Of a stretch of DNA of 20,000 nucleotides, positions 1-20,000 are shown piece after piece. This DNA comes from Neolecta irregularis DAH-3 (Eukaryota), in NCBI GenBank assembly GCA_001929475.1, contig LXFE01000257.1:60967-80966 (forward strand), in the 5' to 3' direction. Every line of letters starts with the position of its first letter. Within the stretch, counting starts at the first letter, position 1. The notes under the pieces were generated by a model that saw only the letters and a list, made by a program, of their open reading frames with translations, did no database searches and was not told the DNA's origin. A program made the translations under genes and the position numbers.

Positions 1-1862
1 CTGTACGCCATCATGTTTCGTCTCTGATGATTCGAAAAATCTCTGAATTCCTCCTGTCTTAGTCTTTTTGAGCCCAGGTAGATGAAAAGATTCAGCTGTG
101 CGTTTCGCCAGTTTGGCTTCTTCGCCTTTTAATAAAAAGGCCTAAGTATCATTAAACAACACCGCCGCGACAATTCTTACGGAAATGCCTCTCACTCCAT
201 CTTCAGCGCCTTCAAACCCGGTGAGACCAACGCTCAACATCGTACAAGGGTAACAACCATTTTCACTTTCAAGAGATTTCATTAGACTGACCGCCAGATA
301 ACTCGTATAGTCAGCCGTCAATTCCTTCCCAATCGGAATTGGTGCTTGACGTGATTTGTTGGCTCTATTAATACCCCGCTAGCAATAAGTATGGCCATGG
401 GGAAGGAATATACATGATGAAGAGTAATAGTCTTAGGGCGCCTGGATAAGGGATCTTCGAGCAGTCTCGATGCAAGGTCAGCGGTCAATATGCGCATCCA
501 GCGTTCCTGCTTTTAAGTTTTCATTCAAACGGGATATTACCGCCTGCTCAATGTTGCCGATATTTGGTCGAAAATTCTTGGCGCTCATCATTGACTTGAT
601 CTGTGTTCGCGGGTTGACTAGCTGTCAATTACGCATGAGTCCATGACGAACCTTCGGAATAATCAATGCCTCTTGAAATGGAATAAACCCAGGGCCCAGT
701 TTCTAGGCCGAGTTTTCCTCGCAGTTCGTCAACGGAAAACCTCCTTTCACTGAGTCGGGGTCCGACACCAATACATGTACCAAAGCTCTCGACATAATTC
801 GGTATTCAAAGATTCAGACACTTGCTCCCCCAGTTTCCCGCCCAAGTTACGAATTTTGGTGAACTTTAAATCAGCCAAAAATCCCATAACTGCTCGATCG
901 CGGATAATGGTCTGCAATTAGCCCGATAATTGCGAGCGTGCTACCTGTTGATTCGGTTTCCGATAGGCAGAGCAAAGTTTAGCCAGCATTTTGTTCTTCG
1001 CAACGCCTGCTGAACAGGTATATTTAAGCTCTTTGAGAACGTGCAAACGTATATCTCTAACGATTTCGGCGCCAATCTGCAGACAGATATCATCCCAATC
1101 AGGAGGACCTTCCTCTGACTCCTCTTGTGACAGAGGAATTAGAGTGCCATGATCATCGATCCAATTACATGCAAGAGGAAGAGGAAGGTTGCAGGAGGCG
1201 TCGCCGTCGGGAGGAAAGGCTAGATAGGGGTACCTGTCTAGTAATTTTTCCCTAACAAGAGTAGAGAGATCAAGAAAAGATTCTGGGGTGATCAACTCAT
1301 GTTCAGCGGCTGGAGTATGTACCGTCTACAGAAGCCTTCTCTGAAAGTGAGATATTGTATTAGCGGAGATGCAGTACCAACAGTATCGCAGTGCTGTCGG
1401 AAAATCTCGAGAATCTTCCTTCCCTCTCGGCGATAAGGATCCAGAGAGACTACGCATGAGAAAGAGCACGAACCCCAAGGCACCTTTGTGGGTGGCCATA
1501 TCGGGATTCAGATGATAGTGAGGCTTAACCTGGTCCTCCTTCCAAGTTTGGACATGCTGAAGAACCAGATGAGGACATTTCAGTAGCGCAGACTCGATGG
1601 TCTCATGGCGTGTCAACCCAAAAGCTCGGGCTGGGTAGTTGACCGCAATTATGCTGCGCCATTGCTGTACTGCCAATGGGGTATCAGGGGATAGCTGCAG
1701 GCGAACAAGCTCGACTTGTGAGTAAAAAGCGTCAAGATCGATATGGGCAATCACGCGCAGTGGCGAATCTCGGGCAGGTGCACGCATAGCGGCTGGCGCT
1801 AGATGGCGGAACGAAAAACGCGACGTCGCTGTTGCTGCCCAGCTGGATGGTGGTAAAGACAT
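1..1862 (-). CDS. RAD30: DNA polymerase eta (Y-family translesion polymerase); 3' end runs off the window
   Basis: Motifs RVIAHIDLDAFY, PLAVQQW, IIAVNYPARAFG, EKASVDESFLDLS, YTCSAGVAKNKMLAKL, IRNLGGKLG, IKSMMSAKNF. Inferred introns (+ coords): 1450-1483, 1341-1377, 1283-1322, 912-944, 744-780, 618-651, 507/510-540, 379-413, 142-180. Confidence 0.95.
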
Positions 1863-2213
1863 CGCTGGAGAGGTGTTTGCGACTTGGAGTGATAGGGCAT
1901 CTATAGTACCTATTAATGCACAGTGAATGCTTCACAGTAGACGCGATGAATGCGCACTAAACAATGACAGCAGAACACAGGTATGTTCAGGTAGGTGAGG
2001 CCTTGATGAGAATCCTGAGACTGGCACCGGTCTAGTATTGTTTAAATGTGATGGGTTGTAATGGGATAGTGTAGCAGAAGGGATGGACTGATAGTGTGTA
2101 TATGCAATATGTAGTTGGATTGGCGGATGGTAGTGGGGATAGGGTCGTGATTCTTGATGGGACAGTCTATGGGATAGAGTAGGGTAGGGTTGTAGGATAA
2201 GATACGATGAACA

Positions 2214-2287
2214 GGATGGTGGATGGTGGATGGTAAATGAAATAGAATTGTGGTGGTAGATGGTAAATGAGATAGGATGTGGTGGTA
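2214..2287 (+). repeat. Low-complexity tandem repeats in the divergent RAD30/VAC8 intergenic region
   Basis: (GGATGGT)x3 at 2214-2234, overlapping two ~30-bp units gatggtaaatga(a/g)atag..tgtggtggta at 2229-2258 and 2259-2287. Confidence 0.75.
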
Positions 2288-2550
2288 GTTGGGGATGAGG
2301 TCGTTTGCAGGGGACCATGCAGAAGCTGCATGTATGCGCGTGTTGCTGCCCGCGCCCCACTCCACCACCTTTGTCGTTCCTTGCACTGCCCTTCCATTGT
2401 CCTTGTCTGCTATCGCTCCCCTCCCCTCCCCTCCCTTTCCTGCCTGTCTGATTTCTTCCCTCTGACACTCCATCCATTTTCTCTTGCTCTTCCCGGACAA
2501 CCTTCCTTCGGAGTCTTATCATCAGGCCTCGTCGACTCCCATCACCCTCC

Positions 2551-4530
2551 ATGGGTAACTGGTGTTCCAACTGTTGCGGTCGTATTAACCTGCTCGCCAG
2601 TTTCATTGCTGACCTTTAAGGACAGTCGCAGTCTGGACTATACGAACCGCTGCTCCAAGACAACGAACGTGAAGCTGTTGCTGATCTCCTACAATATCTC
2701 GAAAACGTATCTCATCCCTTGTCTGTCTGACGTGTTAATCCTGTAGCGTAATGAGACGGACTTTTTTAGCTCGGAACCTCTGAGAGCCCTAACGACTCTG
2801 GTATATTCGGAGAACGTTGACTTGCAACGGAGCGCTGCACTAGCATTCGCTGAAATCACCGAAAAAGGCATGTCCACTTCAATGTGCCATCTTGAATTGT
2901 ATAGATGTCAAAGAAGTTACTAGAGACGCCTTGGAACCAATTCTCTTCTTACTTCAGAGCTCAGATATGGAAGTCCAAAGAGCAGCTAGTGCAGCTCTGG
3001 GCAATCTTGCGGTTAACAGTACCCTCGATCCAAAGCTATTATCTAACTGCCAGCCGAGAACAAGGTTCTAATCGTGCGCTTGGGAGGTCTTGATCCATTG
3101 ATCCGTCAAATGATGTCGAGTAACGTCGAGGTTCAATGCAACGCTGTAGGCTGTATAACAAACTTGGCTACGCATGGTATCTCAGATCCACCAAGTATAT
3201 GCTCATCTCCAAGATGAGAATAAGTCGAGAGTTGCTCGTTCTGGTGCCTTAGGACCTCTCACGAAGCTCTCAAAATCCAAGGATCTTCGAGTGCAGCGGA
3301 ACGCCACTGGCGCCTTACTCAATATGACACACTCTGACGAGAATCGACAGCAGCTTGTCAATGCTGGAGCTATCCCGGTTCTTGTTTCGTTGTTATCTTC
3401 AACAGATACGGACGTACAATACTATTGTACCACAGCGCTAAGCAATATCGCCGTGGACGCCACAAATCGTAAAAAACTTGCAGCATCGGAACCGCGTCTT
3501 GTGCAAGCGCTTGTCAGTCTCATGGATGTACAAAGTCCAAAAGTCCAATGTCAAGCTGCTCTAGCCCTGAGAAACCTAGCTTCAGATGGTCCGAATAAGC
3601 CAGACGTAGCAAGCTGACCGCCTAGAGAAATATCAAATCGACATCGTCCGGTCTAATGGTCTTCCAGCTCTCCTCCGATTACTTCAGTCGGCATATCTAC
3701 CTCTTGTATTATCTAGCGTCGCTTGTATCAGGAACATCTCCATTCATCCTCTAAATGAATCTCCTATCATCGATGCCGGATTCCTTCGACCACTCGTGGA
3801 CCTTCTCTCGAATACAGACAATGAAGAAATCCAGTGCCACAGTATCTCTACTTTACGAAATCTTGCTGCTTCATCTGAGAAAAATAAACGCGCAATTGTT
3901 GAAGCTGAAGCTGTCCAAAAATGTAAGGAGTTGCTGATGCATGTGCCATTGAGCGTCCAAAGCGAAATGACTGCCTGTATAGCCGTTTTAGCTTTGAGCG
4001 GTATATATTTTGCCATCAACTACTTACAGCAGATGAACTGAAGGGACATTTGCTCAATCTCGGTATTTGCCATTCACTTATTCCCTTGACGGACTCTGAA
4101 AGCGTTGAAGTTCAGGGCAACAGCGCTGCTGCGCTTGGAAATCTCTCATCGAAGGGCATAATAGAATGATTGATATTCTCTGACATGTGTAGTTGATGAT
4201 TACACTCCATTTTTAGAAGTCTGGGAATCTCCTGCTGGAGGAATATATGGCTATCTTCGGAGGTTTCTAGATAGTGATGACATCACCTTCCAGCATATTG
4301 CTGTATGGACTCTGCTGCAATTACTCGAAGCAAAAGGTGCATGACTAGTTCGTTCTACAATACTAATAATAGATCCGAAACTCGACAGCGTTGTTAGGCA
4401 AAGCTCTGAAATACTTTCATGTATCAAAAATATCGCCTCTCGAGATCTGCCCAGTATGGAAGACAGTGACAACGGCGAAACAGAAGTGATCAATCTCTCT
4501 CGAAAAGCCTTGGAATTGCTCTCTCAATAA
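2551..4530 (+). CDS. VAC8: Vacuolar armadillo-repeat protein Vac8, 10 exons
   Basis: MGNWCSNCC (myristoylation/palmitoylation N-terminus), [23 protein letters not shown], and ARM repeats [57 protein letters not shown]. Introns: 2579-2620, 2707-2746, 2868-2904 (GC-AG), 3019-3053, 3177-3213, 3589-3625, 4001-4032, 4156-4192 (GC-AG), 4337-4372. Stop TAA 4528-4530. Confidence 0.97.
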
Positions 4531-5160
4531 TTTATACACGTTGTCACATGTGCTATTTTTCCTGTTTTCTTTGCTCTTTTGGTCGAGGCGGATACAGTCT
4601 GGAGTAAAATCTAATCTTGAGGAAGGTCTGGTTTTCGGCGACGGGTTGCTCAGGATTCATTTATTTCATTCCGCCTTTCAATTCATTTTCAATACCATTG
4701 GTGGCAGCAAAAGTTCTTTTCGCTTATTATGGATGCTTTTCTTTCCCGTACACGGCCAACAACAGATATGATTAAAATGAGGGCTGTGTTTCAGTATAAT
4801 AAAAATGTATTCTCGTGAACGTCGTTACTGATAGTAAAACAAACAACAATCATAGAACATGACAAGGCTTTTGGATATTTCCTGGTTTTATAAATTTCTC
4901 GACCTGTCTTAGCCACATTTGACGAGAAGCAGTAGTTTGGTAATGCGGTGATTGCGACTTATAGATTGGAAATCAACCAAGGATCAATGATAATATCAAG
5001 GATTGTTATTCCGAGGCAGGAAAAAGTTGTTCTTGGATTGTGGTAACGCCAATAAACAGGTCCATCTGTCGAGGCAAGAGCAATGATCTCTTTGAAGAAA
5101 TGGCTATATGTAACAAAGTAGATCCAGCCAACTAGAAATATAGAACCGCACAACTTTCGT

Positions 5161-5414
5161 CTATCGTGTCTATAATGATAAGAATAAGCACTCCCGGGGA
5201 TTTCAACTACCTTTGTGAATCCAATATCAGAAGCTCTTTCTCGAAAGCATTGACGGCAGATGAGGAGATCGTATTTTCGGATTAAACCGGCGACGTGAGC
5301 GCAAACTCGACTATGCTAGTCAAAATCGATCGACAGACAGGGAAAAATATACCATTGGCGAGAATCCTTCCCGTAAGTTCTAGGGCGGCTGAAAATCAAA
5401 CTATTCTTTGACAT
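5161..5414 (-). CDS. RPS29: 40S ribosomal protein S29 (uS14), 56 aa
   Basis: Not in the ORF track. Spliced translation [56 protein letters not shown] with the CxxC...CxxC zinc finger. Introns 5311-5352 and 5170-5210. Confidence 0.93.
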
Positions 5415-5579
5415 GCGGAGCGATATGTGTCGAGATGAGCGACTTTTGGTGGTGAAGCGGACGACGGGACTGGTGTTCGCTGTCTACCTTAATTAGCGGT
5501 CATTTTTCTTAACGTTGTCTTAATTAAGTGCAACTAACGTCCATGTGAGACTTCTCCCATTTGGAAGCTAGCTTTTAGC

Positions 5580-5976
5580 ATGGTAAGTGGTCTTATTCTT
5601 ATTATTGTCCTTTCCTTCTGTTGATGGCCATGCTTAAGGATTCACAACGCTCTCATGTTCATTTCGTAAAACCTCGAATTGTCGACATAATGGATGACTG
5701 GGGAAACGATAGACTGCCAGATGAGGACATTGATGTGCCTTTGGCACACCAGCCAGCAAATCCAGATGATGATGATGTTGGTAGAAATATCCTTTCAAGC
5801 CCTCTTTCTGAATGACAGTACCAGATCAACACGCAATTCTTGGTATTCCTCGTGCCCAGAGACCTCCAGAACCAGCGTGGAGGGATCTAGGATTACAAGA
5901 GCTCATGTATCGAGGACCTGGAGTGGAGAAATCTCATCGATCGCCATACATTAAACAGTTATATCTTCCCCGATAG
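5580..5976 (+). CDS. APC13: Anaphase-promoting complex subunit Apc13/Swm1-like
   Basis: M|DSQRSHVHF...DDWGNDRLPDEDIDVP...PDDDDVVPDQHAILGI...EPAWRDLGL matches the remembered fungal Apc13 pattern. Introns 5583-5638 (GTAAGT donor directly after ATG; alternative unspliced starts at 5624/5630) and 5781-5818. Confidence 0.85.
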
Positions 5977-5986
5977 ACCGTTTTAT

Positions 5987-7409
5987 TTAATCGGCACTGT
6001 TCATTGTCATGCTACGAGTGCGAACACAGCGTCCCATTATCATTTCCAGTACTTTATGTAACTGTACGGGGTCAAATCTTCCACTACTGTCTGTCACACC
6101 AACGCACTGAATCCCATATTCCTTCAGGAGCAGTACATTCACAAGCGGCGGGGTCGACTTTCGAAGGTAGATAATATGAGTTATGAATTGGCGATATCCG
6201 AGATTTACGCTTGATTCTACATTTATCGATTGAAGACAAGCCTTGTGAATTGCTTTGACGAAATCAAATGCAGTAAACTTTGAACCAGGGCCGGTTTCGC
6301 GGTCAAGTGTTGAATTGAGGAGCAATATTTTACATCGAACAGATGTAGAAGTGGCTATTGCGTCGCCGATGCCAGATAATATCAGTGATGGTATTATACT
6401 ATATTTTAGAAGAACTTATATTGGTATTACCTTGTATAAAGCGAACCTATGCTGTAGATAATAGCATGTGCTCTATGAATAGCCTTGACAACTTTAGGAT
6501 TTGCGACCGGTTGTACTTCATGGCCGTAGACGTTGATATAGTATATCTTCTCCACAGGGGCATTTAATGGCTCCTCCTCTTGCTTGTTGAACATGATTGA
6601 AGGAGTACGTAATGATGGAAGAGAACCAGGCAGGAACGTGTCATCTTCTCCTGAACTTGCGTCACTGCTTTCTGCAATCTGATGGGATATCTGGGATTGT
6701 CCCGCAATTATTTCACCATTGGTCAATTTGGCAGCGATGTGCTGTGAAAAGTTTGAGTTGAGAATTGGTAATACTGCCGTTTTCTCTGGAATACCTGCAA
6801 TACTTGCGAATTGAAAGATTGCGCTTTCTAACGAACCAAAGAACTGCAGTTAGATGATTCCTCGTATAGCAATACTAGACGCGCTCCGCTCAAAAAGAAG
6901 TTCCCGATACTTCCATTTCTAAAATCGAATGGAAGCGACGGCCGAGATCGCTTTGAGATTTCTGCCTGTGTATGCGTCAGGAAACTCCGGATGACCTGTC
7001 TCTTCTCTGAAGACACCCCATTCCATACACTATATGAAAAAGAATCAATAAAATGCATAACATGGATGGATATACGGATGCAATCCCTCTATTAGATTCA
7101 ACCACTCATTCCGAGCATGAACTTTGTCCTCGGATGTTAAACGATGACCCAATAGATCCTTCAGGGCACTTTTCTCCCCTTTCTCATCTGGAATCAATCG
7201 GACAAGGCGAGACCGTATATCCCCAATGCCCATTCCTCCAATTACTCGCATGCTAGATATTTGGTTTTCAATCTTATATTACAGAGGTACATTTCACTCG
7301 TGGATCCTCCATTGTCACTGACTGGAATAACGTAGCTCACGTTCGATCCGAATGCAGAGACAATTGAATTCGCGGCGCTTCCACCTGAGAACACAAGGAT
7401 GTTTGACAT
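5987..7409 (-). CDS. UPF0052 / CofD-YvcK family protein (YNL011C/MEE18-like)
   Basis: MSNILVFSGGSAANS, VIPVSDNGGSTSEIMRVIGGMGIGDIRSRLVRL, FDFRNGSIGNFFLSGARLFFGSLESAI, IAGQSQISH, IIYSIGSLYTSIIPSLIL, LLNSTLDRET. Introns 7253-7290, 7030-7075, 6844-6875, 6399-6430. Confidence 0.9.
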
Positions 7410-7469
7410 TTCGATACTGAGGTGAAACCTGACTTTTGCCTATCCACCTCATAACCGACACTCGAACTG

Positions 7470-8742
7470 ATGATAGACCTTGCTCTTCACCGAATCGAAA
7501 ATCTTCTCTCACATCTTGGAAATCCACATTTGGTTCCCCAGATCGTTCATATTGCTGGGACAAATGGCAAGGGATCTGTGTGTGCGTATATCTCTTCAGT
7601 ATTAAAGTGCTCTGGGATTCGAACCGGCCGCTTTACGTCGCCTCATATGATCGATCGATGGGATTGTATCGCGATAAACGACAAGCCTGTCGAGAAAAAA
7701 GAGTTCTTGATTGCCGAAAAATTGGTAATGGATGTCAATATTGAAAATAACATAACTGCAACTAAATTCGAAGTTTTGACAGCAACAGCCTTCACCCTCT
7801 TGCGTGATACTGAAATTTCAGTTATCGAAGTTGGAATCGGCGGTAGATTAGATGCTACTAATGTGTTCCCACGGCCCGCAGTCACGGTTATCACCAAAAT
7901 CGGACTGGATCACCAGGGCACTCTAGGATCTACGATTAAAGAAATCGCATACGAGAAAGCAGGCATTATGAAGCCAGGAATAGATTGCGTGATAGACGGA
8001 ACGAACGAAGAGAGTGCTAAACGAATTTTTCGGAAGAAAGCAGATGAGCTGGGAGACGTAGAGATATACGAGACTTATAGAAAGAAGGATGGTACAGCTT
8101 CAACGATAGATGAATCAGTATCACTAAGGCCTTCACTCGCCGGTTTTCATCAGCCTCAGAATCTTTCTTGTGCACTTGCCGTCATCTCCTTGCTCCAAAA
8201 GAGATTTCCAAGACTGAATGCCGAAACAATCTGTCAAGGTATCGCAGAAACAACATGGCCCGGTCGCCTTCAATTGATCAATTTATCACACATTCATCCC
8301 AATGCTTCCAAAGTGCTTCTTGATGGTGCACACAACCCTCAAGCAGCATCGGAGCTAGGAAAGTATATCAATGGTCTCGGTGGAAGAACGGGTTGGATCG
8401 TTGGTATGGCCAGGGGAAAGGCAGTAGAGGAGATTCTCCGAATCTTGGTCAATTCGAGAGATATCTTGGCAGCAGTGGAGTTTGGAAAAGTGGATGGAAT
8501 GCCGTGGATTCAATGTGTCAAAGCAGAAGACATTTCTCGACATGTTCCTGAGGCAAAGGCTTTTGGGCATAAAGTTCGCGAAGCCATATCTTGGACTGCA
8601 GAACAGAAGGTGGACAATGTAGTCATATGTGGGAGCTTGTATCTCGTTGGAGAGGTTCTTCGAATGTCGAGAAATAAAACATCGGAAATGAATGGCATGA
8701 GGCCCCATATATTGTACAATCCCCTAACTCCAAGACATATAA
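7470..8742 (+). CDS. FOL3: Dihydrofolate synthase (FolC/FPGS family)
   Basis: MIDLALHRI, HIAGTNGKGS, GRFTSPH, TKFEVLTA, IEVGIGGRLDATNV, IGLDHQ..LG..IAYEKAGI, WPGRLQ, LLDGAHNP, VICGSLYLVG. The 3' end is predicted via a GC-AG intron 8695-8734 giving stop 8740-8742; the unspliced ORF runs to 8936. Confidence 0.9.
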
Positions 8743-9747
8743 TTATGCAATTTCGGATTCCTCCCTCGTCCGTATCTCCTGCTCCAAACGCTTCTTCTCG
8801 GCTTGCCGAAGACGCATCATTGTTATGCTCTCGTAATCTAGATTTGATAACGAAGATGGAGTCTCAATACCATTGTAAGGACCGGGAAAAGATGAAAATC
8901 CTGAAGATCCAGCTGTTTTTAGAACGCCTGGACTAAAGGAAAATTTCACTGCTGTCGGCTCTTTTTGGGATCCATTAGCCAAACCATCATTTTCGGTTGC
9001 TGGAGCAGTATTGTGAAAGGAAAGATCCGGTTCTCGACCATTTAACCATGATATATCTCGAATAAGACCAAAGGAAGAATCCGTTCGCTTATTGAGGAAT
9101 GCAGCATGAGCTGCTGCAATATCCTTGTAGACTATCAAAGCCGTTCGACCTTTCACCACGACGCTTTCTGTAGATCCAAATTTTTCAAATAGCTCTTTGA
9201 TGTTGACCTTTTCACCGTCGGTTCCCTTCTTCAGACGCACTTTGAGTGTACGATCATCTTCCGTAAACAGACTTGAAATGTTCAAATTCTTCTCTTCTTC
9301 TTTGGCGTCCCTTGACCCTCTTTCAGCCCTCAATACTTCCTCTCTTTTTCTCCGAAGTTGGGCACCTTCAGTCCGCAGCCTTTCTAGATGAACCTGGAAA
9401 TTGCGCTGTGCTTCATCGTAGTCACCTTTTTGCCGTTTAGCTGCCCCTTCCCTATTCTCGAGATCCTCCTTCATCTTACTTCTCTCAAAATCGTACATCT
9501 CCTCCCGTTTACGCTTAGCTTCTGCGGCTCTACGGGTTTGATCATATGTCGCTCGGGCAGCTGGATCCGAGAGAACATCATATGCAACTTGTAATAAATG
9601 AAACCTCTCGATTGCAGTTGGGTCCTTGGTCTTGTCGGGATGATATCGAAGGGCAGTTTTTCGAAATGCTCGATCGAGATCTTTCTGAACAGCATTTAGA
9701 TCGAGATTCAACAATTTATAATAGTCCTCTTTTCCATCCAATGTCAT
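8743..9747 (-). CDS. CWC23: Spliceosomal J-domain protein Cwc23/Cwf23 (DNAJC17-like), intronless
   Basis: N-terminal J domain (DYYKLL...RKTALRYHPDK...AYDVLSD), coiled coil KMKEDLENRE, RRM-like DRTLKVR...ELFEKFG, C-terminal DYESITMMRLRQAEKKRLEQEIR. Confidence 0.9.
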   Translation of the reverse strand: MTLDGKEDYYKLLNLDLNAVQKDLDRAFRKTALRYHPDKTKDPTAIERFHLLQVAYDVLSDPAARATYDQTRRAAEAKRKREEMYDFERSKMKEDLENREGAAKRQKGDYDEAQRNFQVHLERLRTEGAQLRRKREEVLRAERGSRDAKEEEKNLNISSLFTEDDRTLKVRLKKGTDGEKVNIKELFEKFGSTESVVVKGRTALIVYKDIAAAHAAFLNKRTDSSFGLIRDISWLNGREPDLSFHNTAPATENDGLANGSQKEPTAVKFSFSPGVLKTAGSSGFSSFPGPYNGIETPSSLSNLDYESITMMRLRQAEKKRLEQEIRTREESEIA

Positions 9748-9910
9748 GTTCGATGGATAGTTTCAGATGTGAGAGTTGCTGGAATTGCCGCTAATAATGC
9801 AGGTATAAACGTCGTTAATTATGTTCAAAACTTCGGCACTTCTCAGAGAAACTCGTCTCAGGCTTTTTGATTCTACTTCATTCGGTCACATCTATCTAAC
9901 CCTACCGGAT

Positions 9911-10573
9911 ATGTTGATTTACAAAGATGTTATCTCTGGCGATGAGATGCTTTCTGATGCGTATCCGCTGTCAGTTCTACATTTTTTCTAGCTGCGCTGA
10001 TCTTTGACAGCAAGGAAGTTGATGATGTTGTGTACGAGGTTGACTGCTCCATGGTCGTGGTTAAAGAAGGCAATGTTGATATTGGTAATGCGTTGTATTC
10101 AGCTGCCTATTTTGATGTATTATAGGTGCTAACCCCTCCGCCGAAGATGCCGATGAGGCTCTCGAAGACAACGCGCAAACGGTGAACAACATTGCCCATG
10201 CTTTCCGGTTGCAAGCCACCAGCTTTGACAAGAAATCGTTCTTAACCTACCTCAAGTCTTATATGAAGGCAGTCAAAGCCTACTTGCAAAAAGATAATCC
10301 AGACCGTGTTGCAGTCTTTGAGAAAAATGCTGCCGCTTTTGCAAAGAAAATTGTTGCAAATTTCAAGGATTACGAATTTTACACAGGTGAAAGCATGGAC
10401 GTATATCATTTACAAAAGTCATCCTATATTTACGGATAGACCGATGGAATGATTGCTCTTTTGAACTACCGGGTTGACGGTTTTACTCCATACTTTATCT
10501 TTTGGAAGGATGGTTTGAAGGAAGAAAAAATGGCATGCCTTGCATTTCAGATTCAACTGATATGTTTTAGTAA
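9911..10573 (+). CDS. TMA19: Translationally controlled tumor protein (TCTP) homolog
   Basis: [83 protein letters not shown]. Introns 9970-10010, 10085-10125, 10401-10439, 10533-10570 (GC-AG, followed directly by TAA). Confidence 0.96.
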
Positions 10574-10818
10574 GGTAGCATTATACTGCAAAGCGCTAGG
10601 TACTTGGGTCGATTTTTTGTCCAGATAATCCTCTGAAATTACTCTCGGCTCTGCAAATAGATATGCCTATTCTATTCCCAAACGCCAATTCAGTCATTTC
10701 AACATCAAGCTCAAAAAAGCCCGTCTCGATTAGGAAGCTGAAGACCTCCATTCCTTGAATGATGAAAGGATACCCGATGATGACATTTACATTCCTTAAC
10801 AGCAGATGTATAGTAATC

Positions 10819-11955
10819 TCAAGTTTGTCCTCGACCGTCCGGCCACCATGAAGGCCTAAATACTTTGACCCCAATGATCCTAGATGCTCCATTGCTGTCT
10901 GCCCAATGGATATGGAATTTTTGATCTGCCGCACACCACATATCCTCCAGCCTAGCCAATACGAGCCCTACGTTCCCGATTCCATTGCAGAACTTCCCTG
11001 CGTTTCGCCCGGGCTTAGAAGCTTTAAATATTGGCGTTTTCCCGGGCTTAGAATCTTTAAATATTGGCGTTTGCCTGGGCTTAGAATCTTTAAATATTGG
11101 CGTTTGCGGCGAGGGCAAAAGAATCTCTGACGGGTGGTAAACCAATGTCTCTGGCGGTAACTGCTCTGGGTCATAAAACACTGCCGGTAAGATTCGCTTC
11201 CGGATTACGCCAGTATGATAGGTCCGGATGGTAAGCTCTTGTCCAATATAGCATCCTTTGTGGAGATCAACTAAAGATTCAGCATCTGGGGAAATGTGGT
11301 GAAATACTCCCACCCATATAATCAATACAATGTTCCATGGGCAACGCAGCTCCTTGCGAAATCTCTTCCCTACCTTCTGGAATTCCGTTCAGATATCTCT
11401 TGACATGGTAGTCTCGAGTGTCACCTTCTTGGGCGTTCAGCTCAGGTCGCCTGGTCGAAGGCACTAATACTCGGCTTCCCATCTCCGGAGCACGGCTATC
11501 TTGACATCCGATGTATTTTTCAGCCGAGGGAGTATTCCAGACATTCCAATCGTCTAATAAACGTATTTGACACCGAGCTCGTAGCTTATAGCGTTGTAAG
11601 TGGGTCACCAATCCATCTGTGCATTTCGAATCCACCTCGACGATGTAGGCCGGGTCTTCTGAATTGGAATGGTTCCTCCATTCTGACTTGTGATGAGCGG
11701 CATATATGAAGGAATCGTAAAGAACACGGCCCTCAAACTTAGACTTGGTGGTAGATGTGTGAGTCATACCGAAGGTAAGAGAAAGGCAGTGTATATGCCA
11801 CTTGTGCAAGCACTATTGATCGAATTCGTCACCAAACCATGTAGAAAGGTAGCCGCATCTGCTCCTTGGACAAGCACCAAGCCTCTTGCACTGGATAAAT
11901 TGTAAAAGGTTGTGCGTAGGGCAGCTGTGGAAGAGAAGCGGCGAAAAAGTAGCAT
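10819..11955 (-). CDS. IBA57: Mitochondrial Fe-S assembly factor Iba57/Caf17 (YgfZ/GcvT fold)
   Basis: Presequence-like [46 protein letters not shown], signature [26 protein letters not shown]. Introns 11732-11769 and 11271-11307. Confidence 0.94.
11008..11106 (+). repeat. 33-bp x3 coding tandem repeat in IBA57
   Basis: Units cccgggcttagaagctttaaatattggcgtttt / cccgggcttagaatctttaaatattggcgtttg / cctgggcttagaatctttaaatattggcgtttg. Confidence 0.97.
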
Positions 11956-12062
11956 CGAGGAGAAGCGGTAAACTCCTACTGTACAAGTGCATATGGTCAG
12001 CAAGGCACAGGACATACAGCCGTCAAGCGGAAATTTTGAGAAAGAGTGGAACGCAGTAGAAT

Positions 12063-12094
12063 TGTGCATATATGCATGTATGCATATATGCACA
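12063..12094. repeat. Perfect 15-bp inverted repeat with 2-nt spacer in the IBA57/SNF4 divergent promoter
   Basis: tgtgcatatatgcat-gt-atgcatatatgcaca. Confidence 0.95.
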
Positions 12095-12138
12095 GAGCCT
12101 TGCAGAGAGCTCCTGCTCCAGACCTGGCATCCACCATT

Positions 12139-13380
12139 ATGGCTTCAACACTGCATGAATCTACGAGTGAAGACACACTCGATGCCGCCCAACAGGATGC
12201 TCTGGTATGCCGCTGTTCTACACCTCTGCTTATCCGACAAAGGACGCAATCAGATCGTTCATCCAGAGCAGGACCAGCTATGATGTCTTCCCCGTTAGTT
12301 TCCGGTTGATTGTCCTCGATACTCAACTCTTGGTCAGGAAAAGCTTAAACATCCTACTGCAAAACAGTATATGCTATTTTGTAGTAATTATTGACAACGA
12401 GACATCGTTTCAGCGCCGTTATGGGATAGTAACGAATCTAAATTCTCCGGATTGCTCACGGTTTCCGACTTCATCAATGTCATCCAATACTACCAACGAC
12501 ATACTTCTCTCCCACAGGCGCTCTTGGAGATGGAAGATTTCAAATTACATGGCTTACGAGGTATATATATCCCCCCATAATGTAGCTCACTCCAGATATT
12601 GAGAAAAAGATTGGAGCACCTCCTCCGGAGACGTACTATATTGCGCCCTCGAGGAGCCTGTACGATGCGTGCAAGTACCTCATCAAGTCAAGAGCAAGAC
12701 GAATACCCTTGGTTGATATCAATACTCATACAGGCAAAGAAATGCTCGTCTCCGTACTGACCCAGTATCGCATTCTCAAGTTTATCGCTGTGAATGTACG
12801 ACCATTCTTTATTCGTACCTCTTATTTTATAGTGCAAAGAGACTACGCTACTGAAAAAATCACTTGCAGAACTTCATATTGGGACTTATGACGAGCTATT
12901 GACTGCTGATATGAATACTCCGGTTCTGCGTGTGATTGACATGCTCGCCAAACATGATATAGCCAGTGTTCCTATCGTCGACAAAGAAGGTGTGTAGTTC
13001 TCGAGTAGATTAAGCCTAATGTTGAAGGCGTCGTGCTTAATGTCTATGAAGCCGTTGATGTCTTGACTATTATTCGCGCTGGGCAGTATGGCGATTTGGA
13101 GCTTACAGTTGGTCAAGCTTTGTTACGTCGTCCAGATGTATGTAGTTGTGGATAATTCTCTTAATAATATGTGTAGGAGTTCGCCGGTGTTCATAAATGC
13201 ACTGAGCAGGATACCTTGGCAGGCATATTCAATACAATTCGTCGGGAGCGACTTTATCGGCTTGTTGTAGTAGATGATGCCGGGAAACTCAAAGGCATGG
13301 TCACTCTCAGCGATATTTTAAAGTATATGCTCGATGGCAATGGGGATGAACACATGGAGCATCACCGAGCGAGTCCATGA
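12139..13380 (+). CDS. SNF4: AMPK/Snf1 gamma subunit (CBS domains)
   Basis: [111 protein letters not shown]. Introns 12205-12242, 12367-12401, 12561-12595, 12796-12832, 12990-13027, 13138-13176. Confidence 0.96.
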
Positions 13381-13555
13381 TTATTTATATTTCCTTTCAA
13401 AGGATATCATAGAAGGAACAAGAAACTGTAATTTTAGATTATTTTCCTGGCAAAGCTTGTATATTCTCTACCACCAGTTTTGTCATGTCCCGTTGGGAGC
13501 TAGGTTGTATTTGTTGTAATTAACGCAAGTAGCAACTACCTTCATCTCGATTTAT

Positions 13556-14118
13556 ATGGCTCCCCGAAAAATGTCATATATTCAAGTGCTTGCAGTAGCT
13601 GTCGTGACAACAGGGATAGGCTACCTCGCTTATTCATACTGCGCTCCTTTAGTCGCAGCTCCAGTAAAGCCGCGCAAGGTTGCTGTGATCATGGATAAAG
13701 TATCCTCATGGAACTCTTGCCACACTCTAACAAAGTGTAGTCTATCAGCATCCCAAGCAACGCAAAAGAACGATCTGATCTAGTCGTTCTCGTAAATGTA
13801 GAGGAGCATCCTGATATAAATCTTGCTGAGCAGGAAACCAAAGTGCACGACGCATCGTGTATCCTAAAATGCCGGAAGCGGGATGGAATTGTCCATATGC
13901 TGAGAATGCTCGGCGTCGACGTAATTGTTCTTTCTGAAGAGTACCAAGACTTGATACCCCAGCTCAGGGGTTTGTCCTCACTCTAGATCTTGCTGATCGC
14001 AGAATGGGCACCTCGGGTCATAGTATTCACCAAGACAAAGGATGAATGGAATGGTAAAGTGAGATATCTAAATGAGCAGAGATGGGATGCCACCATCTTT
14101 GGGACTCCAGGTAAGTAG
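13556..14118 (+). CDS. Probable Pex22-like peroxisomal membrane protein
   Basis: N-terminal TM helix (VLAVAVVTTGIGYLAY), then KVAVIMDK, ILKCRKRDGIVHMLRML and EWAPRVIVF, resembling fungal Pex22-like proteins from memory. Introns 13700-13740 and 13970-14002. The 3' end is uncertain. Confidence 0.6.
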
Positions 14119-14226
14119 CAGCTGGACTTGGAATGCTGTGTTGTATGAGTATTTATAAGCCAATGAAGATCATCAAGTTCTGGCGGGGCAAACAAAACAA
14201 ATTCTACAAAAGCTCGCTTCAAAATC

Positions 14227-15171
14227 CTACAAGAAACGTCTAAACCAACCTAGCGTAATTTCAAATGCCTAGCTTGTGAGAAAATTCGCAGGATCAACGG
14301 ATACCTGCTCTTTGGCGTGCCTTGATTTCACGTCACTTGGCTCGAATCGTAGGGCGAAGCCGTGCTCGGCATCAAGTTCTGTAATCTGAATTTCGATATT
14401 TCGTTTCTGTGCTTCGTTCTTGGCGTGTTCTTGAAGTTCTTTGGAAAATACGAGTTCATTCTGCGTTAAAATATAGTGTATTGGACAGATAACGCCGTCA
14501 AAATCCGCAGCTTCAATACCGGTTGGATGACAAACAATACCAGCCTCAATATATTCCAATTTTAGAGTATAACGACCTAATGTCAAGTTCAAAAACTTCA
14601 AAAATGGCGCGGCACCTCCCCAAGAAAATCCTATCGCTCCAATTTTTCGTACGCCGTGCTCAGTGCGCAAAGCTTCAATGTAGGCTCTCAAAATAGCCAT
14701 GGTGCGTTCTTCATTGTGTCTTCTTCGCCAGAAAGGGACGTAAATGGCCGTCGCGATGCCATGTTTAATCTGCCCATTAAATCATCGACTAAGCGCGAGC
14801 GAGAACCTTCTCAATGACAAACCTGTCAGGAGACTGCGCTGGCAGCACTTCTTCCGGAATGGGATCCCCCTCGAGTAAATCCGGTATTACAACGTAATAG
14901 CCCTAGCAATGAGTGGTGTCCGAGACACGCATACATTAGAGGCGAAATCATCGCCTAGAACCCTTAAATTAGGATCTGAAAAGCCCAGCGCATCCGAAAG
15001 AACCAGGATACATTTTGAAGTATCTCCGCTCGACGGTTTGGCTACGTATGTGTCCAAGGTTGCAATAGTCGTGACAGATCCTGATGGAGTTGCATTATGG
15101 TGAAGGTCACTGATTGGATGGGAAAGAGCATCAAGGTCTTCAGAGAGCGCAGGCGAAAGAGACCGAGACAT
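14227..15171 (-). CDS. Dienelactone hydrolase-family alpha/beta hydrolase (AIM2-like)
   Basis: TYVAKP, ILVLSDALGF..PNLRVLGDDFASNGYYVVIPDLLEGDP, KIGAIGFSWGG, HPT, EHGFALR, AKEQAFEITLGWFRRFL. Introns 14903-14934, 14770-14806, 14577-14615, 14269-14304. Confidence 0.9.
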
Positions 15172-15615
15172 GGTGATTGAATGGGGCCGGTTTATTGATG
15201 GTCTGGTTCAAGGGTAGTTAGTGAAAAGCCGTTTGCGGCGTTCGGTGTCACTAACAACATCACGCTGCACTTTGCTATTATTCGTTCATGTGAACAAAAG
15301 ACAGGTTTATCTCTCATTAGCATGAGAGACGCTAGTTGTTATAACTTTGGTCACATGAAATAGAAAAATACAAAGAACCAGTAGTTGGCGTGATGATAAG
15401 CAATGTCGCCGGTTGAACACGCGAGTCCTTATTAATGTATCAGTTTCAAGCCACGTGAATGAGCGAATGTCGGGAATTTGGAACAATTCAACAAGGCTGT
15501 ATGCAGGGTTATTACGAGCTCATTGGGAAATATGCAAATGCGACTGTATGGTACAAAATGCCTGTAAAACCCGAAATGCAATTCCAACGCCAATAATAAA
15601 TTCCGACTTTGAAAA

Positions 15616-16878
15616 TCAAAAAGGCTGTTGGCCGTAATGAGGTACTACGCCTCTCTGCACATAGCTGCCGAATTCTCGGCCAACGGTGTGGTACCACATG
15701 CTGCGGACCTGCCCTGCAGAATCAAAAATTGGAACGGGGTTCATGAGTGTTTGCACTGGCTGTAGTGGCGCATAAGGGGAGTCGCGCATGTGAAGATATG
15801 GCGATAGCGAGGTGGGAGTCGATACCTGGGAGGACGTGGTGTGGAAAGGACTGAGGCGAGAGCAGTCGTATATTGTAGATGTTCTAGTGGCGGATGATGG
15901 TGAATTCCTTGGTAACTGCTCAAGTCGTAGTTTGGGCAACTGCGAACGCGAAATCGGAGGAAAGTGAGAACCAAGATAGGAAGGTAGAGCGTTGAAATTG
16001 AACTGGGCATGTCGTTTTGCAGGAGGAGCTGCGAGAGGTTCGGCATACGAGCGTTTTCTTGAAATTGATGAAGTACCTACCCACGATAGACGCCCAGAGG
16101 AGACTTTGAAGGGAGAAACGGGGGGAGGAACCGGCTGCCATTTGGATGTCGGGGTTAAACATGTCGATGGAGACGACGGTAAAGATAGATGTGTGCTGGT
16201 AGGACTAACATGATATCCTTCTCGAAACTGGAGAAAGCGAGCAAGAAGCTTTCTCCAATCTGCAAATTGCGATTCGCTGCAGTAAAGCTGGTAACGCATA
16301 TTGCTAAGAAACTCTGTCTCCATGACATGAATTTCCTTGACGGGTATTCTGGTGACATCTGCCCACGTCTTGTTGGTATAGGTGTTATCATCGAGGACTT
16401 GAGCTTAGTCGTTGTGCGCGAGTGGAAATACATTTATTCCCGAGCATCAGGGCAACAGTAAGCAAGCGATATTCACTTCCCGGCTTGCCGATAACTGAAG
16501 AGTTCATTGTCTTGAGGCGAAAGATGAACAACAAAGCAAGCATGACCACATTGCGAGACACTTGGGTCAAGGACAGGACGTCGCAGCACCAATTCACGAA
16601 AGCGGGCCGCGAGGCTGATGATGCTGAGAGCGGGGGCGACAGGTCGGCCTTGCCGGAAACGATGTTGGTGAGCGATAGTGTATTTTCAAACCAGAAATGA
16701 CAAGTCATCTAGGACGTGAGCCAGACTTGGGGGTGATGCAAACGTCGCAGGCGAATTGCGGGATGGAAGCATCCTGGATGGCGGGCAGGATGTGTCTGTC
16801 CAGCGGTGATGCGGGCATGGAGTGCTTGTTCTGGCGGTGCTTGTTGTCGGAGGGTGGTGTGTACTGGCCATAGCTCAT
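15616..16878 (-). CDS. Pho80/Pcl-family cyclin, Clg1/Mug80-like
   Basis: Cyclin box LSLTQVSRNVVMLALLFIFRLK...[50 protein letters not shown], with a long S/P-rich tail. Introns 16709-16743 and 16398-16431. An alternative in-frame ATG lies at 16935. Confidence 0.88.
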
Positions 16879-17196
16879 GACTGCAGGCTCGCACGCAGAT
16901 TCGAACAGCTGGAGGTAGGACACAGCACTAACCATTCTATTGCATTGGCGGATGCGGGTGCAAAACAGCGGCACCTAGGTTTCTTTTAACGATTACGGGA
17001 GGAGGCGGGAACTGAGACTGTATTATTAAGGCTGAGGTTCCGGGTGTCTGATGAACGCCGCAATCGATCTGTTAAGAAGTCAGCGCCTCTTTCAAGACAT
17101 TGGCATACCCAAACGCCTTTTCCCGAAATTTGTGGCCTAGTAGAGTAGTCAGGCAGCGTTACGGCAAGGGTGGCAATCGGAGGAATGTGACCTACC

Positions 17197-17255
17197 GGGA
17201 GGGAGGGAGGGATGGGAAACGAAGGCGCAATGACGGAAGGTCGAGGTGTTTTATA
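17197..17255 (-). promoter_or_regulatory. Putative core promoter of the cyclin gene: TATAAAA plus downstream CT-rich box
   Basis: Minus-strand TATAAAA at 17249-17255, followed by cccatccctccctccctccc (17197-17216). Confidence 0.45.
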
Positions 17256-18157
17256 GCATCTTTTGTGGTTCTCTTCGACTTCGCAGGGGTACCAGCATAT
17301 CGATCAATGATCGAGCTAGTTTAAATCCGCTCCTATCGACCCGTGAAAATCTCTCGTAAGCACGGCATGATACCTACTTTTTCATGCATCCTTTTCTCGG
17401 GTTCCCCGATTTTACTGTTCTTTTTTGATTGTCTCTGCGGCGTTTTCGTTTCACATGGGTTGTGCAAGCTCGGAGTTGCCTATTTTGACATGTAATTCCC
17501 AAATGGCCGACACTCAAATGGCAGAGTGGCTAACCGTTTGATGATGGAACAAATGTATTTGAGGCTACAACCCGGCTTTTCGCACGCTTCTGTACACAAG
17601 GGAACCCCTGAAGGAAAAACTAGAACAAAATCGGAGCCAAGCATTGGGAGTGATTTGTTTTCTGCACCTGCAATAGACTGCGGATCGTTGGCCACCCGAT
17701 GCCCGAAAACGCCAAGGAAACCTCTTCGGAAATAGAACAAAGCCGAACGCCACGACCAGTCAAACATCTTCTTTTGAGACCAGGCGAATTTGGAATGGGC
17801 TTGACATAGCGAGGGATAATAAAACAAAAGAGTGTTGATGGAACAGAGCAAGTGGAGCGCCTCCAGGGTTGGTGACATTCTTTAAGCAACAAATTTACAA
17901 TTTGCCCAGTCCAGACCGGAATGTGGCACTATTATAGAGGAGCGAGTACACGATCGCTAATGGGGCAGGAGACCTGGATTGATCCCCAACGATCTCTGCT
18001 AAAAGGGTGAGGCTACGTCATGCTTGTTATCTTGAAAACACAGCCATCCCTTGCTGATGCCTCTAATGCAGTGTTTTCCATGATGCTAATCCGTATTTAA
18101 CCCGAGCCTAAACAGTGCATGGGCGAATCAGTATTAACGAAGCCAGAAGGCGATGAC

Positions 18158-18238
18158 CGCAGGCAGGTGCCTAAACGGCGATGATGTAAATTGTCGCAGG
18201 CAGGTGCCTAAACGGCGATGATGTAAATTGTCGCAGGC
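18158..18238 (+). repeat. Perfect 37-bp tandem duplication (2.2 copies)
   Basis: cgcaggcaggtgcctaaacggcgatgatgtaaattgt at 18158-18194 and 18195-18231, then cgcaggc. Confidence 0.97.
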
Positions 18239-18461
18239 CAGGTGGTTAAACAAGTGTTTATGGGGCGGTGATGCAAATCAGGTTATAACCTGCAGGCATA
18301 ACCCGAGACAGATCAATGTCTGAGGCACGCCGCGGCAGAGGCAGTACAGGTTTCTATCGATAATGTCAGGCCTGATTGGCGATGACAGGCCAGAGTGCAG
18401 GATCTGGGCCCTGGCGTGGACGGGACGGGACAGGAGTATGCGGGCAGGGGCAACGAGGGAG

Positions 18462-18512
18462 GGCGGCACGGCGGAAGGCGGCACGGCGGAAGGGGCGGCA
18501 CGGCACGGCACG
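18462..18512 (+). repeat. GC-rich short tandem repeats upstream of CHS7
   Basis: ggcggcacggcggaa x2 followed by ggcac repeats. Confidence 0.75.
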
Positions 18513-18556
18513 TGGCAGCGACGCATAAATACGGGCGGCGGGGCGTCGCGGCCGCC

Positions 18557-19558
18557 ATGGCATTCGGCTCGTTTGCGGCGATCTGCAACGCGGCGCCGCT
18601 GCCGCTGTGCGCGCTGGTGGGGGAGCCGCGGGGCGCGGGGCCGGCGTGCTATGCGCGCAACATCGAGCTTGCGAACACGCTGATCTTCGAGGGGGCGGCG
18701 GCGGTGGTGCAGCTGGCGGCGCTGGTGATGGTGGGCGTGATGCTGGCCAACATCGGGGCCAAGTACACGGCGGTGGGGCGGCGCGAGATGGCGACGTTCC
18801 TGCACCTGTACGTGCTGCTGACGGCGGTGACGCTGGTGCTGGACGCGGGCGTCGTGGGCCCGCCGGCGCCGGTGTATGCGTGGGCGGTGGCCGCGCAGTG
18901 CGGGCTGGTCACCGCGACGAGCTGGTGCCTGCTGGGCAACGGCGCCGTCGGCTTCCAGCTGGCCGAGGACGGCACGCGCCTGTCGCTGGCGCTGCTGCGC
19001 GGCTCGTCGCTGCTCGTGTTTCTGGCGAGCAGCGGCGTCGCGCTGGGCACGTTCCGCGGCTGGATCGGCAGCACCGCCGCGCTGTTTGCGGTGCTGTACG
19101 TTGCGCCCGCCGCCATCCTCGCCGCCTACGCCGCGTCGCAGGTCTACCTCGTGCTCGCAACGCTGCGCGACCGCTGGCCGCTCTTCGACATCGCGTTCGG
19201 CGTCTTCTTCTTCGCGCTCGGCCAGGTCGCGCTGCACGCGCTGTCGCCCGCCATCTGCGCCCGCGCAAACCACTACCTCGACGGCCTGTTCTTCGTCGCC
19301 GTCGCAAACCTGCTCGCCGTCATGATGGTCTACAAGGTGCCGCCCCCGGCGTGTTGCCCTGCTCACCCGCAGTTCTGGGACTCGATCACAAAGGAGGATC
19401 TCGAGTTCAGCGTCAGCATGAAGGCCAACGTCTGGGAGGTCAAGGAGCGCCTGCTCCCCGACGACGACCGCAGGCCCTACGACTACAGCGACAGTGCAGC
19501 AAGCCTGCAGACGAGTGCGTACACCGGCCATCCCGCGCATGCCGCCAGCGAGTATTGA
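18557..19558 (+). CDS. CHS7: Chitin synthase export chaperone Chs7
   Basis: GCCGCCATGG start. MAFGSFAAICNAAPLPLCALVG, PACYARNIELANTLIF, KYTAVGRREM, LLGNGAVGFQLAEDGT, HYLDGLFF, LLAVMMVYK|FWDSITKEDLEFSV. One in-frame 36-nt intron at 19337-19372. Confidence 0.95.
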   Translation: MAFGSFAAICNAAPLPLCALVGEPRGAGPACYARNIELANTLIFEGAAAVVQLAALVMVGVMLANIGAKYTAVGRREMATFLHLYVLLTAVTLVLDAGVVGPPAPVYAWAVAAQCGLVTATSWCLLGNGAVGFQLAEDGTRLSLALLRGSSLLVFLASSGVALGTFRGWIGSTAALFAVLYVAPAAILAAYAASQVYLVLATLRDRWPLFDIAFGVFFFALGQVALHALSPAICARANHYLDGLFFVAVANLLAVMMVYKVPPPACCPAHPQFWDSITKEDLEFSVSMKANVWEVKERLLPDDDRRPYDYSDSAASLQTSAYTGHPAHAASEY

Positions 19559-19722
19559 TGGACATAGTAGACGGAATGGTCGTAATAGCCGTACCTGTAG
19601 TAAAAGAGTGCCTGCTTGTATAGTCCTGCTGTATCGCTGCATCGATGTGCGTGCGGTGGCACTCGCGCTCCGCTGCTGCCCGGCCAACCGCAGCCTGCCG
19701 CCCGCGTCGCCGCCGCACGACC

Positions 19723-20000
19723 ATGGTACCGGGCAGCTTCAACATCTTCTCCCCGCAAAAGGCCTACACGCCCGCCCAGAAGAACGCGCTGCGCCATTTC
19801 CTCGACGTCACGCAGTCAAACGAACGCACAGGCCTCAAGCTGCTCAAGGCCTGCCAGTGGAACCCCAGCCTCGCCATCGACCAGTTCTACAGCGCAGGCA
19901 AATCCCCCGCACAGAAATTCAACGCCGCCCCCGTCATCAGGGTCTTTGAGCAATACACAGGCACCCGCACTCCCGCCCGCCTCCCCCGCACTGACCCCCG
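19723..20000 (+). CDS. DCN1: Defective in cullin neddylation protein Dcn1, 5' part
   Basis: M|AYTPAQKNALRHFLDVTQSNERTGLKLLKACQWNPSLAIDQFY...VIRVFEQY is a UBA-like N-terminus followed by the start of the PONY domain. Intron 19726-19761; a probable GC-donor intron starts at 19961. Confidence 0.78.
   Translation, partial: MVPGSFNIFSPQKAYTPAQKNALRHFLDVTQSNERTGLKLLKACQWNPSLAIDQFYSAGKSPAQKFNAAPVIRVFEQYTGTRTPARLPRTDP

Follow-up and report, generated by a model that had tools for sequence, protein, structure and literature searches.

Near-minimal introns of about 37 nucleotides with atypical 5′ splice sites in a gene-dense locus of Neolecta irregularis

Intron length was reportedly put forward as a source of information for splicing by Lim and Burge in 2001, and chlorarachniophyte nucleomorphs are one lineage in which introns are tiny. 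In fungi, intron length contributes notably to intron recognition, and the shortest species mean among 61 eukaryotes was given as 56 bp (Iwata and Gotoh 2011, PMC3033335); 63 bp has been cited for Cryptococcus as relatively short (Lim et al. 2021, PMC8476143). Introns of ~25 nucleotides (nt) are described for ciliates (PMC5014332), and introns under 30 nt for myxozoans (PMC13644364). As for the 5′ splice site (donor), all analysed fungi were reported to show strong intronic and little exonic bias, and this pattern is accompanied by the absence, through loss, of proteins of the LUC7L3 type (Kenny et al. 2025, PMC11842720). The ascomycete Neolecta (Taphrinomycotina) has been described as intron-rich, with 4202 introns in 1211 orthologues, ~26% of which were gained (PMC7940399). 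No main-text description of its intron size or splice signals was found in the literature searched, the supplements of which may hold statistics; in the genome paper, the words "intron" and "splice" are both absent from the main text, and Supplementary Table 1 may hold such figures. Here we describe the introns in 20,000 nt of Neolecta irregularis DAH-3 (contig LXFE01000257.1, positions 60,967 to 80,966 of the forward strand; hereafter the window, with coordinates counted from its first letter). These introns, with a mean length of 37 nt, are real and RNA-backed; the best reading of our data is that they are canonical, lying at the extreme of a known mechanism, and that they carry a class of donor atypical for fungi.

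Gene models were rebuilt independently of the original prediction and gave 46 introns in this single 20-kb window. Their lengths ranged from 32 to 46 nt (mean 37.0, median 37, standard deviation 3.0), with a mode of 37 nt reached by nine introns; 45 of the 46 lay within 32–42 nt. The original prediction had placed 47 of 49 introns in the same range with the same mode (n = 9) and had counted G at donor position +5 (+5G) in only 16 of 49 heterogeneous donors. Both observations were reproduced by the new models, in which 15 of 46 donors had +5G and the information at this position was close to zero bits. By kind of support, 14 introns were seen as skips in contigs of a sequencing run, X2, 14 were obtained by threading the organism's own proteins through the DNA, nine belong to VAC8 and were placed against a protein of a relative, and nine were placed manually by homology.

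Comparison of X2 with the window gave 47 joints, and the counts of X2-supported introns rest on the 15 that were listed. Fourteen of these were skips of 35–41 nt with GT..AG or CT..AC ends; the 15th reflected a 33-nt tandem repeat with a different number of copies. Although the catalogue entry for X2 reads "DNA?", its depth is uneven, and its contigs lack the short segments on both strands. The skips and the uneven depth together suggest that X2 derives from RNA. Four introns shown in this way lie in TCTP on the plus strand, at 9970..10010 (41 nt, donor GTCAGT), 10085..10125 (41 nt, GTAATG), 10401..10439 (39 nt, GTATAT) and, directly before the stop codon, 10533..10570 (38 nt, GCATGC), the last becoming GC..AG after its cut was moved by 1 nt within the stated ambiguity of the joint. 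Two are in CAF17/IBA57 on the minus strand, at 11271..11307 (37 nt, GTATTT) and 11732..11769 (38 nt, GTATGA). Six are in SNF4 on the plus strand, at 12205..12242 (38 nt, GTATGC), 12367..12401 (35 nt, GTATAT), 12561..12595 (35 nt, GTATAT), 12796..12832 (37 nt, GTACGA), 12990..13027 (38 nt, GTGTGT) and 13138..13176 (39 nt, GTATGT). The remaining two, both on the plus strand, are in the gene for a Pex22-like protein (13700..13740, 41 nt, GTATCC) and in CHS7 (19337..19372, 36 nt, GTGCCG). Complete SNF4 and TCTP proteins resulted from the six and four X2-shown introns alone.

Threading of annotated proteins was exact for three genes on the minus strand. For the Y-family polymerase pol eta (P0121), 513 of 623 residues fell inside the window and nine GT-AG introns were required, at 142..180 (39 nt, GTAAGA), 379..413 (35 nt, GTATAT), 507..540 (34 nt, GTAATA), 618..651 (34 nt, GTTCGT), 744..780 (37 nt, GTACAT), 912..944 (33 nt, GTAGCA), 1283..1322 (40 nt, GTACAT), 1341..1377 (37 nt, GTACTG) and 1450..1483 (34 nt, GTGCCT). 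The CofD-like protein (P0241) was threaded over all 424 of 424 residues with four GT-AG introns, at 6399..6430 (32 nt, GTAATA), 6844..6875 (32 nt, GTATTG), 7030..7075 (46 nt, GTATAT; no other verified intron falls outside 32–42 nt) and 7253..7290 (38 nt, GTACCT). A PHO80-like cyclin (P0243) was threaded over 297 of 297 residues with one GT-AG intron at 16398..16431 (34 nt, GTATTT), next to an X2 piece that ends at 16397.

The genome's own VAC8 protein was not found among the matches listed, and a 97%-identical protein, P0002, was used instead. P0002 is the 549-amino-acid (aa) product of a 2132-nt environmental contig, which we interpret as a transcript, free of introns, from a close relative. 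The nine-intron VAC8 model likewise encodes 549 aa, is colinear with P0002 and is identical to it at 536 of 549 positions. This colinearity supports plus-strand introns at 2582..2620 (39 nt, GTATTA), 2707..2746 (40 nt, GTATCT), 2868..2904 (37 nt, GC-AG with GCATGT, for which there is no frame-keeping GT alternative), 3019..3053 (35 nt, GTACCC), 3177..3213 (37 nt, GTATCT), 3589..3625 (37 nt, GTCCGA), 4001..4032 (32 nt, GTATAT), 4156..4192 (37 nt, GC-AG with GCATAA) and 4337..4372 (36 nt, GTGCAT), numbered 1 to 9 in this order; an X2 piece starts at 4371, within a 2-nt AG ambiguity of the end of the ninth. The GTCGTA donor formerly assigned to intron 1 had to be replaced, as P0002 reads ...CCGRQSQ... 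and the actual intron start, 2582, lies two codons downstream.

The nine manual, homology-based introns include three that adjoin ends of X2 contig pieces (5169, 14934 and 17109). In RPS29 on the minus strand, intron 2 (5170..5210, 41 nt, GTAGTT; X2 piece end at 5169) yields a 56-aa S29 protein, and intron 1 (5311..5352, 42 nt, GTATAT) restores the residues ...SRQCRVCAH.... APC13 on the plus strand has an intron at 5781..5818 (38 nt, GTAGAA), with an Apc13p Pfam match on the exon upstream of it, and a second intron of the Pex22-like gene is at 13970..14002 (plus strand, 33 nt, GTTTGT). A dienelactone hydrolase gene on the minus strand contains introns at 14269..14304 (36 nt, GTATCC), 14770..14806 (37 nt, GTTCTC) and 14903..14934 (32 nt, GTATGC; an X2 piece starts at 14934, within a 1-nt G/G ambiguity). 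The last two belong to the cyclin gene on the minus strand, one upstream at 16709..16743 (35 nt, GTTTGC), which lengthens the annotated model, and one in the 5′ leader at 17069..17108 (40 nt, GTATGC...GCTGAC; X2 piece start at 17109). The annotated 297-aa cyclin begins at an internal Met (16543), and the exon reached through 16709..16743 would add ~100 residues; the annotated model is thus probably truncated at its N-terminus.

Could mini-introns of this kind arise simply because open reading frames (ORFs) were forcibly joined, whether manually or by gene-prediction software? A short GT..AG pair is always available to naive ORF joining for skipping a stop, and joining through any such pair indeed bridged every stop and crossed 6 kb of unrelated genes. 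ORF logic alone therefore proves nothing, and the claim is carried by the RNA and annotation evidence. In line with this, three kinds of ab initio model, namely longest-ORF joining, codon-usage log-odds (trained on 2666 codons) and length-penalised joining, did not recover the RNA-shown introns. An artefact is nevertheless hardly credible: it is already contradicted for the 14 displayed X2 joints, the segments missing from X2 contigs, on both strands, are precisely these, RNA-shown introns by themselves give complete SNF4 and TCTP proteins, and spliced VAC8 agrees with the product of an independent environmental transcript, P0002. These results confirm that the introns are real and spliced from RNA, and not chance pairs.

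We then consider the donors. The termini were GT-AG in 43 introns and GC-AG in three (2868–2904, 4156–4192 and 10533–10570), all three of which start with GCAT. The GC-AG share, 6.5% of the 46, is high by comparison with the ~1% usual in most eukaryotes. Counted over the 46 donors, G was found at +1 in all; T at +2 in 43 and C in three; A at +3 in 36; T at +4 in 26 and C in 12; T at +6 in 23; and G at −1 (−1G) in 28. At +5 the four bases were nearly even (G 15, A 12, T 10, C 9), and +5G occurred in 7 of the 14 X2-shown introns and in 11 of the 37 backed by RNA, annotation or the relative. The information at +5 was −0.02 bits, and the whole donor from −3 to +9 held 5.9 bits, of which the GT contributed 3.6. 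Relative to 498 exonic GT sites, the donors were enriched in −2A (48% vs 29%), −1G (61% vs 23%), +3A (78% vs 19%) and +6T (50% vs 25%), and their mean number of matches to CAG|GTAAGT was 4.85 vs 3.68. The donors thus do not follow the typical GTRNGT-like fungal consensus, which has +5G and little exonic bias, with +5G in 15 and −1G in 28 of the 46.

The positions −2A, −1G, +3A and +6T are complementary to the canonical 5′ end of U1 in the textbook pairing, and +4T and +6T fit a yeast-type GUAUGU contact with U6. The retained biases therefore argue against a changed U1. They also bear on the proposal of a divergent spliceosome, in which altered U1 and/or U6 small nuclear RNA (snRNA) or core proteins such as Prp8 and U1C would leave +5 unread and a molecular ruler would set the 3′ site. 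Zero information at +5 is what this proposal expects, and a narrow length distribution and the help that length gives against decoys (see below) also speak for it. We nevertheless consider it improbable, given the biases at canonical-U1-complementary positions, a branch motif that fits canonical U2 by the same textbook pairing rules, GC-AG variants that constitute the usual minority class of U2-type introns, a verified 46-nt intron that carries a weak donor, and a total length that is no tighter than its two parts. No snRNA was found in the window, as an Rfam scan of the 20 kb gave zero matches at E up to 1.

When the donors were sorted by −1G and +5G, left-handed sites (−1G/+5H) outnumbered right-handed ones (−1H/+5G) by 19 to 6 of the 46, and by 14 to 4 in the 37 best-supported introns. 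Against a right-handed proportion of 0.8 (a 4:1 expectation), 6 of 25 gives a binomial p of 2.6e-9. This skew is the evidence for a different possibility, in which a canonical core works with a retained or newly evolved U1-associated factor that favours left-handed sites, as in plants and animals, for example a LUC7L3-type Luc7 paralogue or a modified Luc7 or U1C. We regard this as rather unlikely: the introns are few and all belong to a single locus, a Luc7-type factor is a candidate only, and 12 of the 46 donors have neither −1G nor +5G, beyond the reach of a left-handed factor alone.

At the 3′ side, de novo search gave the branch motif nCTnAyn, with C (.78) or T (.20), then T (.97), any base (G.36, T.26, A.22, C.16), A (.89) and C or T. 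YTNAY with its A 6–14 nt from the 3′ end occurred in 36 of 46 introns, a number that fell to 10.8 ± 2.8 when the interiors were shuffled, and YTNA with its A 5–16 nt from the 3′ end occurred in all 46. The strict form, CTRAY in place, was found in 13 of 46, and the branch site is accordingly not the typical fungal one. The original prediction had called the branch sites weak; this holds in that they are degenerate, and does not hold if weak is taken to mean absent. The motif fits canonical pairing with U2, and for this reason, together with donor biases that fit U1, we read the introns as ordinary U2-type introns. A U12-type reading was raised by two GTATCC donors (13700 and 14269) and rejected, since no TCCTTAAC branch box was present in any of the 46 introns and the lengths and 3′ ends of the GTATCC introns were like those of all others. 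We attribute the resemblance to U12 donors to the common GTAT start and to the frequency of C at +5 to +7.

The geometry of the introns was examined in two parts. The distance from the 5′ splice site to the branch A was 29.0 ± 2.7 nt, and that from the branch A to the 3′ splice site was 8.0 ± 1.8 nt. No significant anticorrelation was observed between the two (r = −0.19, p = 0.20), and the total length is therefore not shown to be more tightly constrained than its parts. The size is kept whatever the composition, as the CHS7 intron, with 78% G+C in a block of 65% G+C, is still 36 nt long. Ten of the 46 introns had a length of 3n, against 15.3 expected by our own arithmetic, a trend in small numbers; nine of these ten would cause a premature stop if retained, and retention would disrupt the frame in 44 of 45 coding introns.

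To what extent length can aid discrimination was quantified in a leave-one-gene-out test, in which the introns competed with all 6237 GT/GC..AG pairs of 25–100 nt in 12 pre-mRNAs. With splice signals alone, 11 of 45 introns outranked every decoy in their gene, there were 182 false positives at 80% recall, and the median intron had five better-scoring decoys, indicating that something beyond the motifs must help. When a length term of 37 ± 3 nt was added, 31 of 45 introns outranked all decoys and the false positives at 80% recall fell to 17, so that spacing could supply the missing specificity. The idea that splice sites are chosen largely by length, as first proposed, is partly supported: the gain from 11 to 31 of 45 speaks for it, and a ruler for total length in particular is not borne out, since the total is not shown to be tighter than its parts. 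Its corollary that strong signals are needed only in off-length introns is contradicted by the verified 46-nt CofD intron (7030–7075), which has the donor GTATAT and no well-placed YTNAY.

The same numbers can be viewed without any ruler, if deletion bias and selection for compactness press the introns to their lower size limit and the machinery does not read length. Both sub-distances are indeed narrow without being negatively correlated, the genome is small (14.5 Mb; PMC5309816), and this account gains from a parallel elsewhere. That is, other compact genomes show sharp peaks of minimal introns. It does not readily explain why the upper side of the length distribution is as sharp as the lower, with one of 46 introns above 42 nt, nor how the sites would be found when signals alone leave a median of five better decoys per intron. 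We regard this account as possible, with a somewhat better chance than an auxiliary factor, and still on the unlikely side.

Taken together, the introns of the window are probably ordinary U2-type introns, reduced almost to the minimal size and recognised by intron definition, in which ~29 nt lie between the 5′ site and the branch A and ~8 nt between the branch A and the 3′ AG. Bound at a weak 5′ site, U1 would be so near the factors at the branch point and 3′ site that the two sides stabilise each other across the intron, and the close spacing would supply part of the specificity that sequence gives in other fungi. To judge from the splice-site sequences, no change in the core snRNAs is needed, and nothing in the data requires altered U1 or U6 or core proteins. 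What has probably changed is the tolerance for losing the +5G contact, possibly via U1-associated proteins.

Several points weigh against reading the introns in this way. The RNA origin of X2 is deduced, and the run is catalogued as "DNA?". The sample consists of 46 introns from a single 20-kb window, with 15 of the 47 X2 joints. Simple pairing with U1 might lead one to expect that −1G and +5G compensate for each other, and no such effect was observed (Fisher p = 1.0). Twelve of the 46 donors have neither base. The canonical core is argued from splice-site sequences, which leave some room for a changed spliceosome. In addition, the decoy test reveals which information is available to a model and not what the spliceosome reads, and the depletion of intron-like segments from coding sequence (2 vs 5.8 ± 2.5 expected; 9 of 100 shuffles gave a count as low as this or lower) is a trend only.

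Two further candidate introns were noted from the DNA itself and are not among the 46. The first is a candidate intron 1 of APC13 directly after the ATG, at 5583..5638 on the plus strand (56 nt). Previously singled out as the longest intron and the only one with a GTAAGT donor, it is present as a sequence, but translation could equally well begin at 5624 with no intron, giving the same downstream protein. The second, a candidate DCN1 intron also directly after the ATG, lies at 19726..19761 on the plus strand (36 nt, GTACCG).

The window is a gene-dense fungal locus, in which genes were named from Pfam matches on open frames and, for several, also from direct reading. From left to right it contains pol eta (minus strand), which runs off the left end of the window; VAC8 (plus, introns 2582–4372); RPS29 (minus, introns 5170–5352); APC13 (plus); the CofD/UPF0052 protein (minus, introns 6399–7290), an exon of which is 100% identical to the database protein NEOLI_000183 of N. 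irregularis DAH-3; a folylpolyglutamate/dihydrofolate synthase (open frame 7470–8936, plus); a J-domain protein (DnaJ; 8746–9762, minus, a single exon of 339 codons); TCTP (plus, introns 9970–10570); CAF17/IBA57 (minus, introns 11271–11769); SNF4 (plus, introns 12205–13176); the Pex22-like protein (plus, introns 13700–14002); dienelactone hydrolase (minus, introns 14269–14934); the PHO80-like cyclin (minus, 16398–17108 region); CHS7 (plus, intron 19337–19372); and the start of DCN1 (plus).

Upstream of VAC8 there is a 30-nt G/T-rich tandem repeat and a C/T-rich tract (2219–2292 and 2400–2460), and reads of the DNA run X1 seem to be cut at 2408–2446. Over its last ~190 nt the folate-synthase frame overlaps the 3′ end of the J-domain gene, which is convergent with it, and a single X2 contig piece spans 7334–9831 without a joint; either there is an overlap between the two transcripts, or the actual stop is at another position. 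The J-domain protein matches J domains in general and, weakly, yeast Cwc23 (5y88_T, E 6e-8, residues 16–104), and may be a candidate Cwc23/DNAJC17 orthologue judging by this similarity. Within the minus-strand coding sequence of CAF17, 11000–11107 is occupied by 3.2 copies of a 33-nt tandem repeat that encodes repeated ...TPIFKDSKP..., and one of the copies is missing from the X2 contig (joint 11043 to 11077).

A 37-nt tandem repeat of 2.5 copies lies between genes at 18158–18251, and the X2 pieces omit one unit of it (18157 to 18195); the unit has an intron-like length and yet is no intron. From 18200 to 20000 the G+C content rises from ~45% to ~65%, with a boundary near 18300 and with CHS7 and DCN1 inside the G+C-rich block; for the genome as a whole, an average of 44% has been reported (PMC5309816). 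The boundary is not an obvious misassembly, because one X2 contig spans it (pieces 17109–18157 and 18195–19334). At 19110–19830, X1 gives several short contigs with variant letters and a 3-nt insertion, at a depth of 1700–2000 vs ~450 elsewhere and with loose ends, one of which carries TTAGGG-like repeats. These contigs and their depth suggest diverged extra copies of the 3′ end of CHS7 elsewhere in the genome.

If the pattern extends genome-wide, Neolecta would join a high intron density with possibly the shortest regular introns of a free-living fungus and with a class of donor almost lost in other fungi. It would then be well suited, as a natural case, to studying how tiny introns are found by a spliceosome, bearing on how much specificity can be drawn from spacing instead of sequence and on whether Luc7-type factors co-evolve with 5′ site handedness. 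A bolder version, which we offer tentatively and think more likely wrong than right by a good measure, is that the Neolecta spliceosome has dropped the +5G contact and reads mostly left-handed or near signal-free 5′ sites in a frame fixed at 29 + 8 nt, the cause being a lineage-specific change in U1-associated proteins (e.g., a retained LUC7L3-type Luc7) or, less likely, in U1 or U6. If true, Neolecta would depart from the loss of left-handed 5′ sites reported for fungi, and among non-microsporidian fungi its introns would be the shortest regular class. Gene prediction is affected as well, since splice models made for fungi in general would mis-call genes of this kind, as the ORF-based searches did here.

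With regard to known systems, the U12-type introns share with Neolecta a GTATCC donor start, in 2 of 46 introns only, and the combination of RTATCCTT and TCCTTAAC is lacking here. The tiny-intron lineages, namely ciliates, myxozoans and nucleomorphs, resemble Neolecta in a very narrow length peak near the lower limit and in that a retained intron would nearly always break the frame (44 of 45 coding introns here), whereas the Neolecta introns are longer and have kept a recognisable branch motif. In the LUC7 handedness classes (PMC11842720), donors can be sorted by −1G and +5G, as they can here; other fungi are reported in that source as strongly right-handed, in contrast to the left-handed bias of the window (19 vs 6, with −1G at 61%). 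A further comparison is with the short introns that Schizosaccharomyces, Cryptococcus and Pezizomycotina recognise by intron definition, with GT/GC-AG termini, a branch motif near the 3′ site, no long polypyrimidine tract and recognition aided by length, all of which are also found in Neolecta. Compared with these, the Neolecta introns are much shorter and narrower in length (37 ± 3 nt), have lost +5G, and leave the R of CTRAY free.

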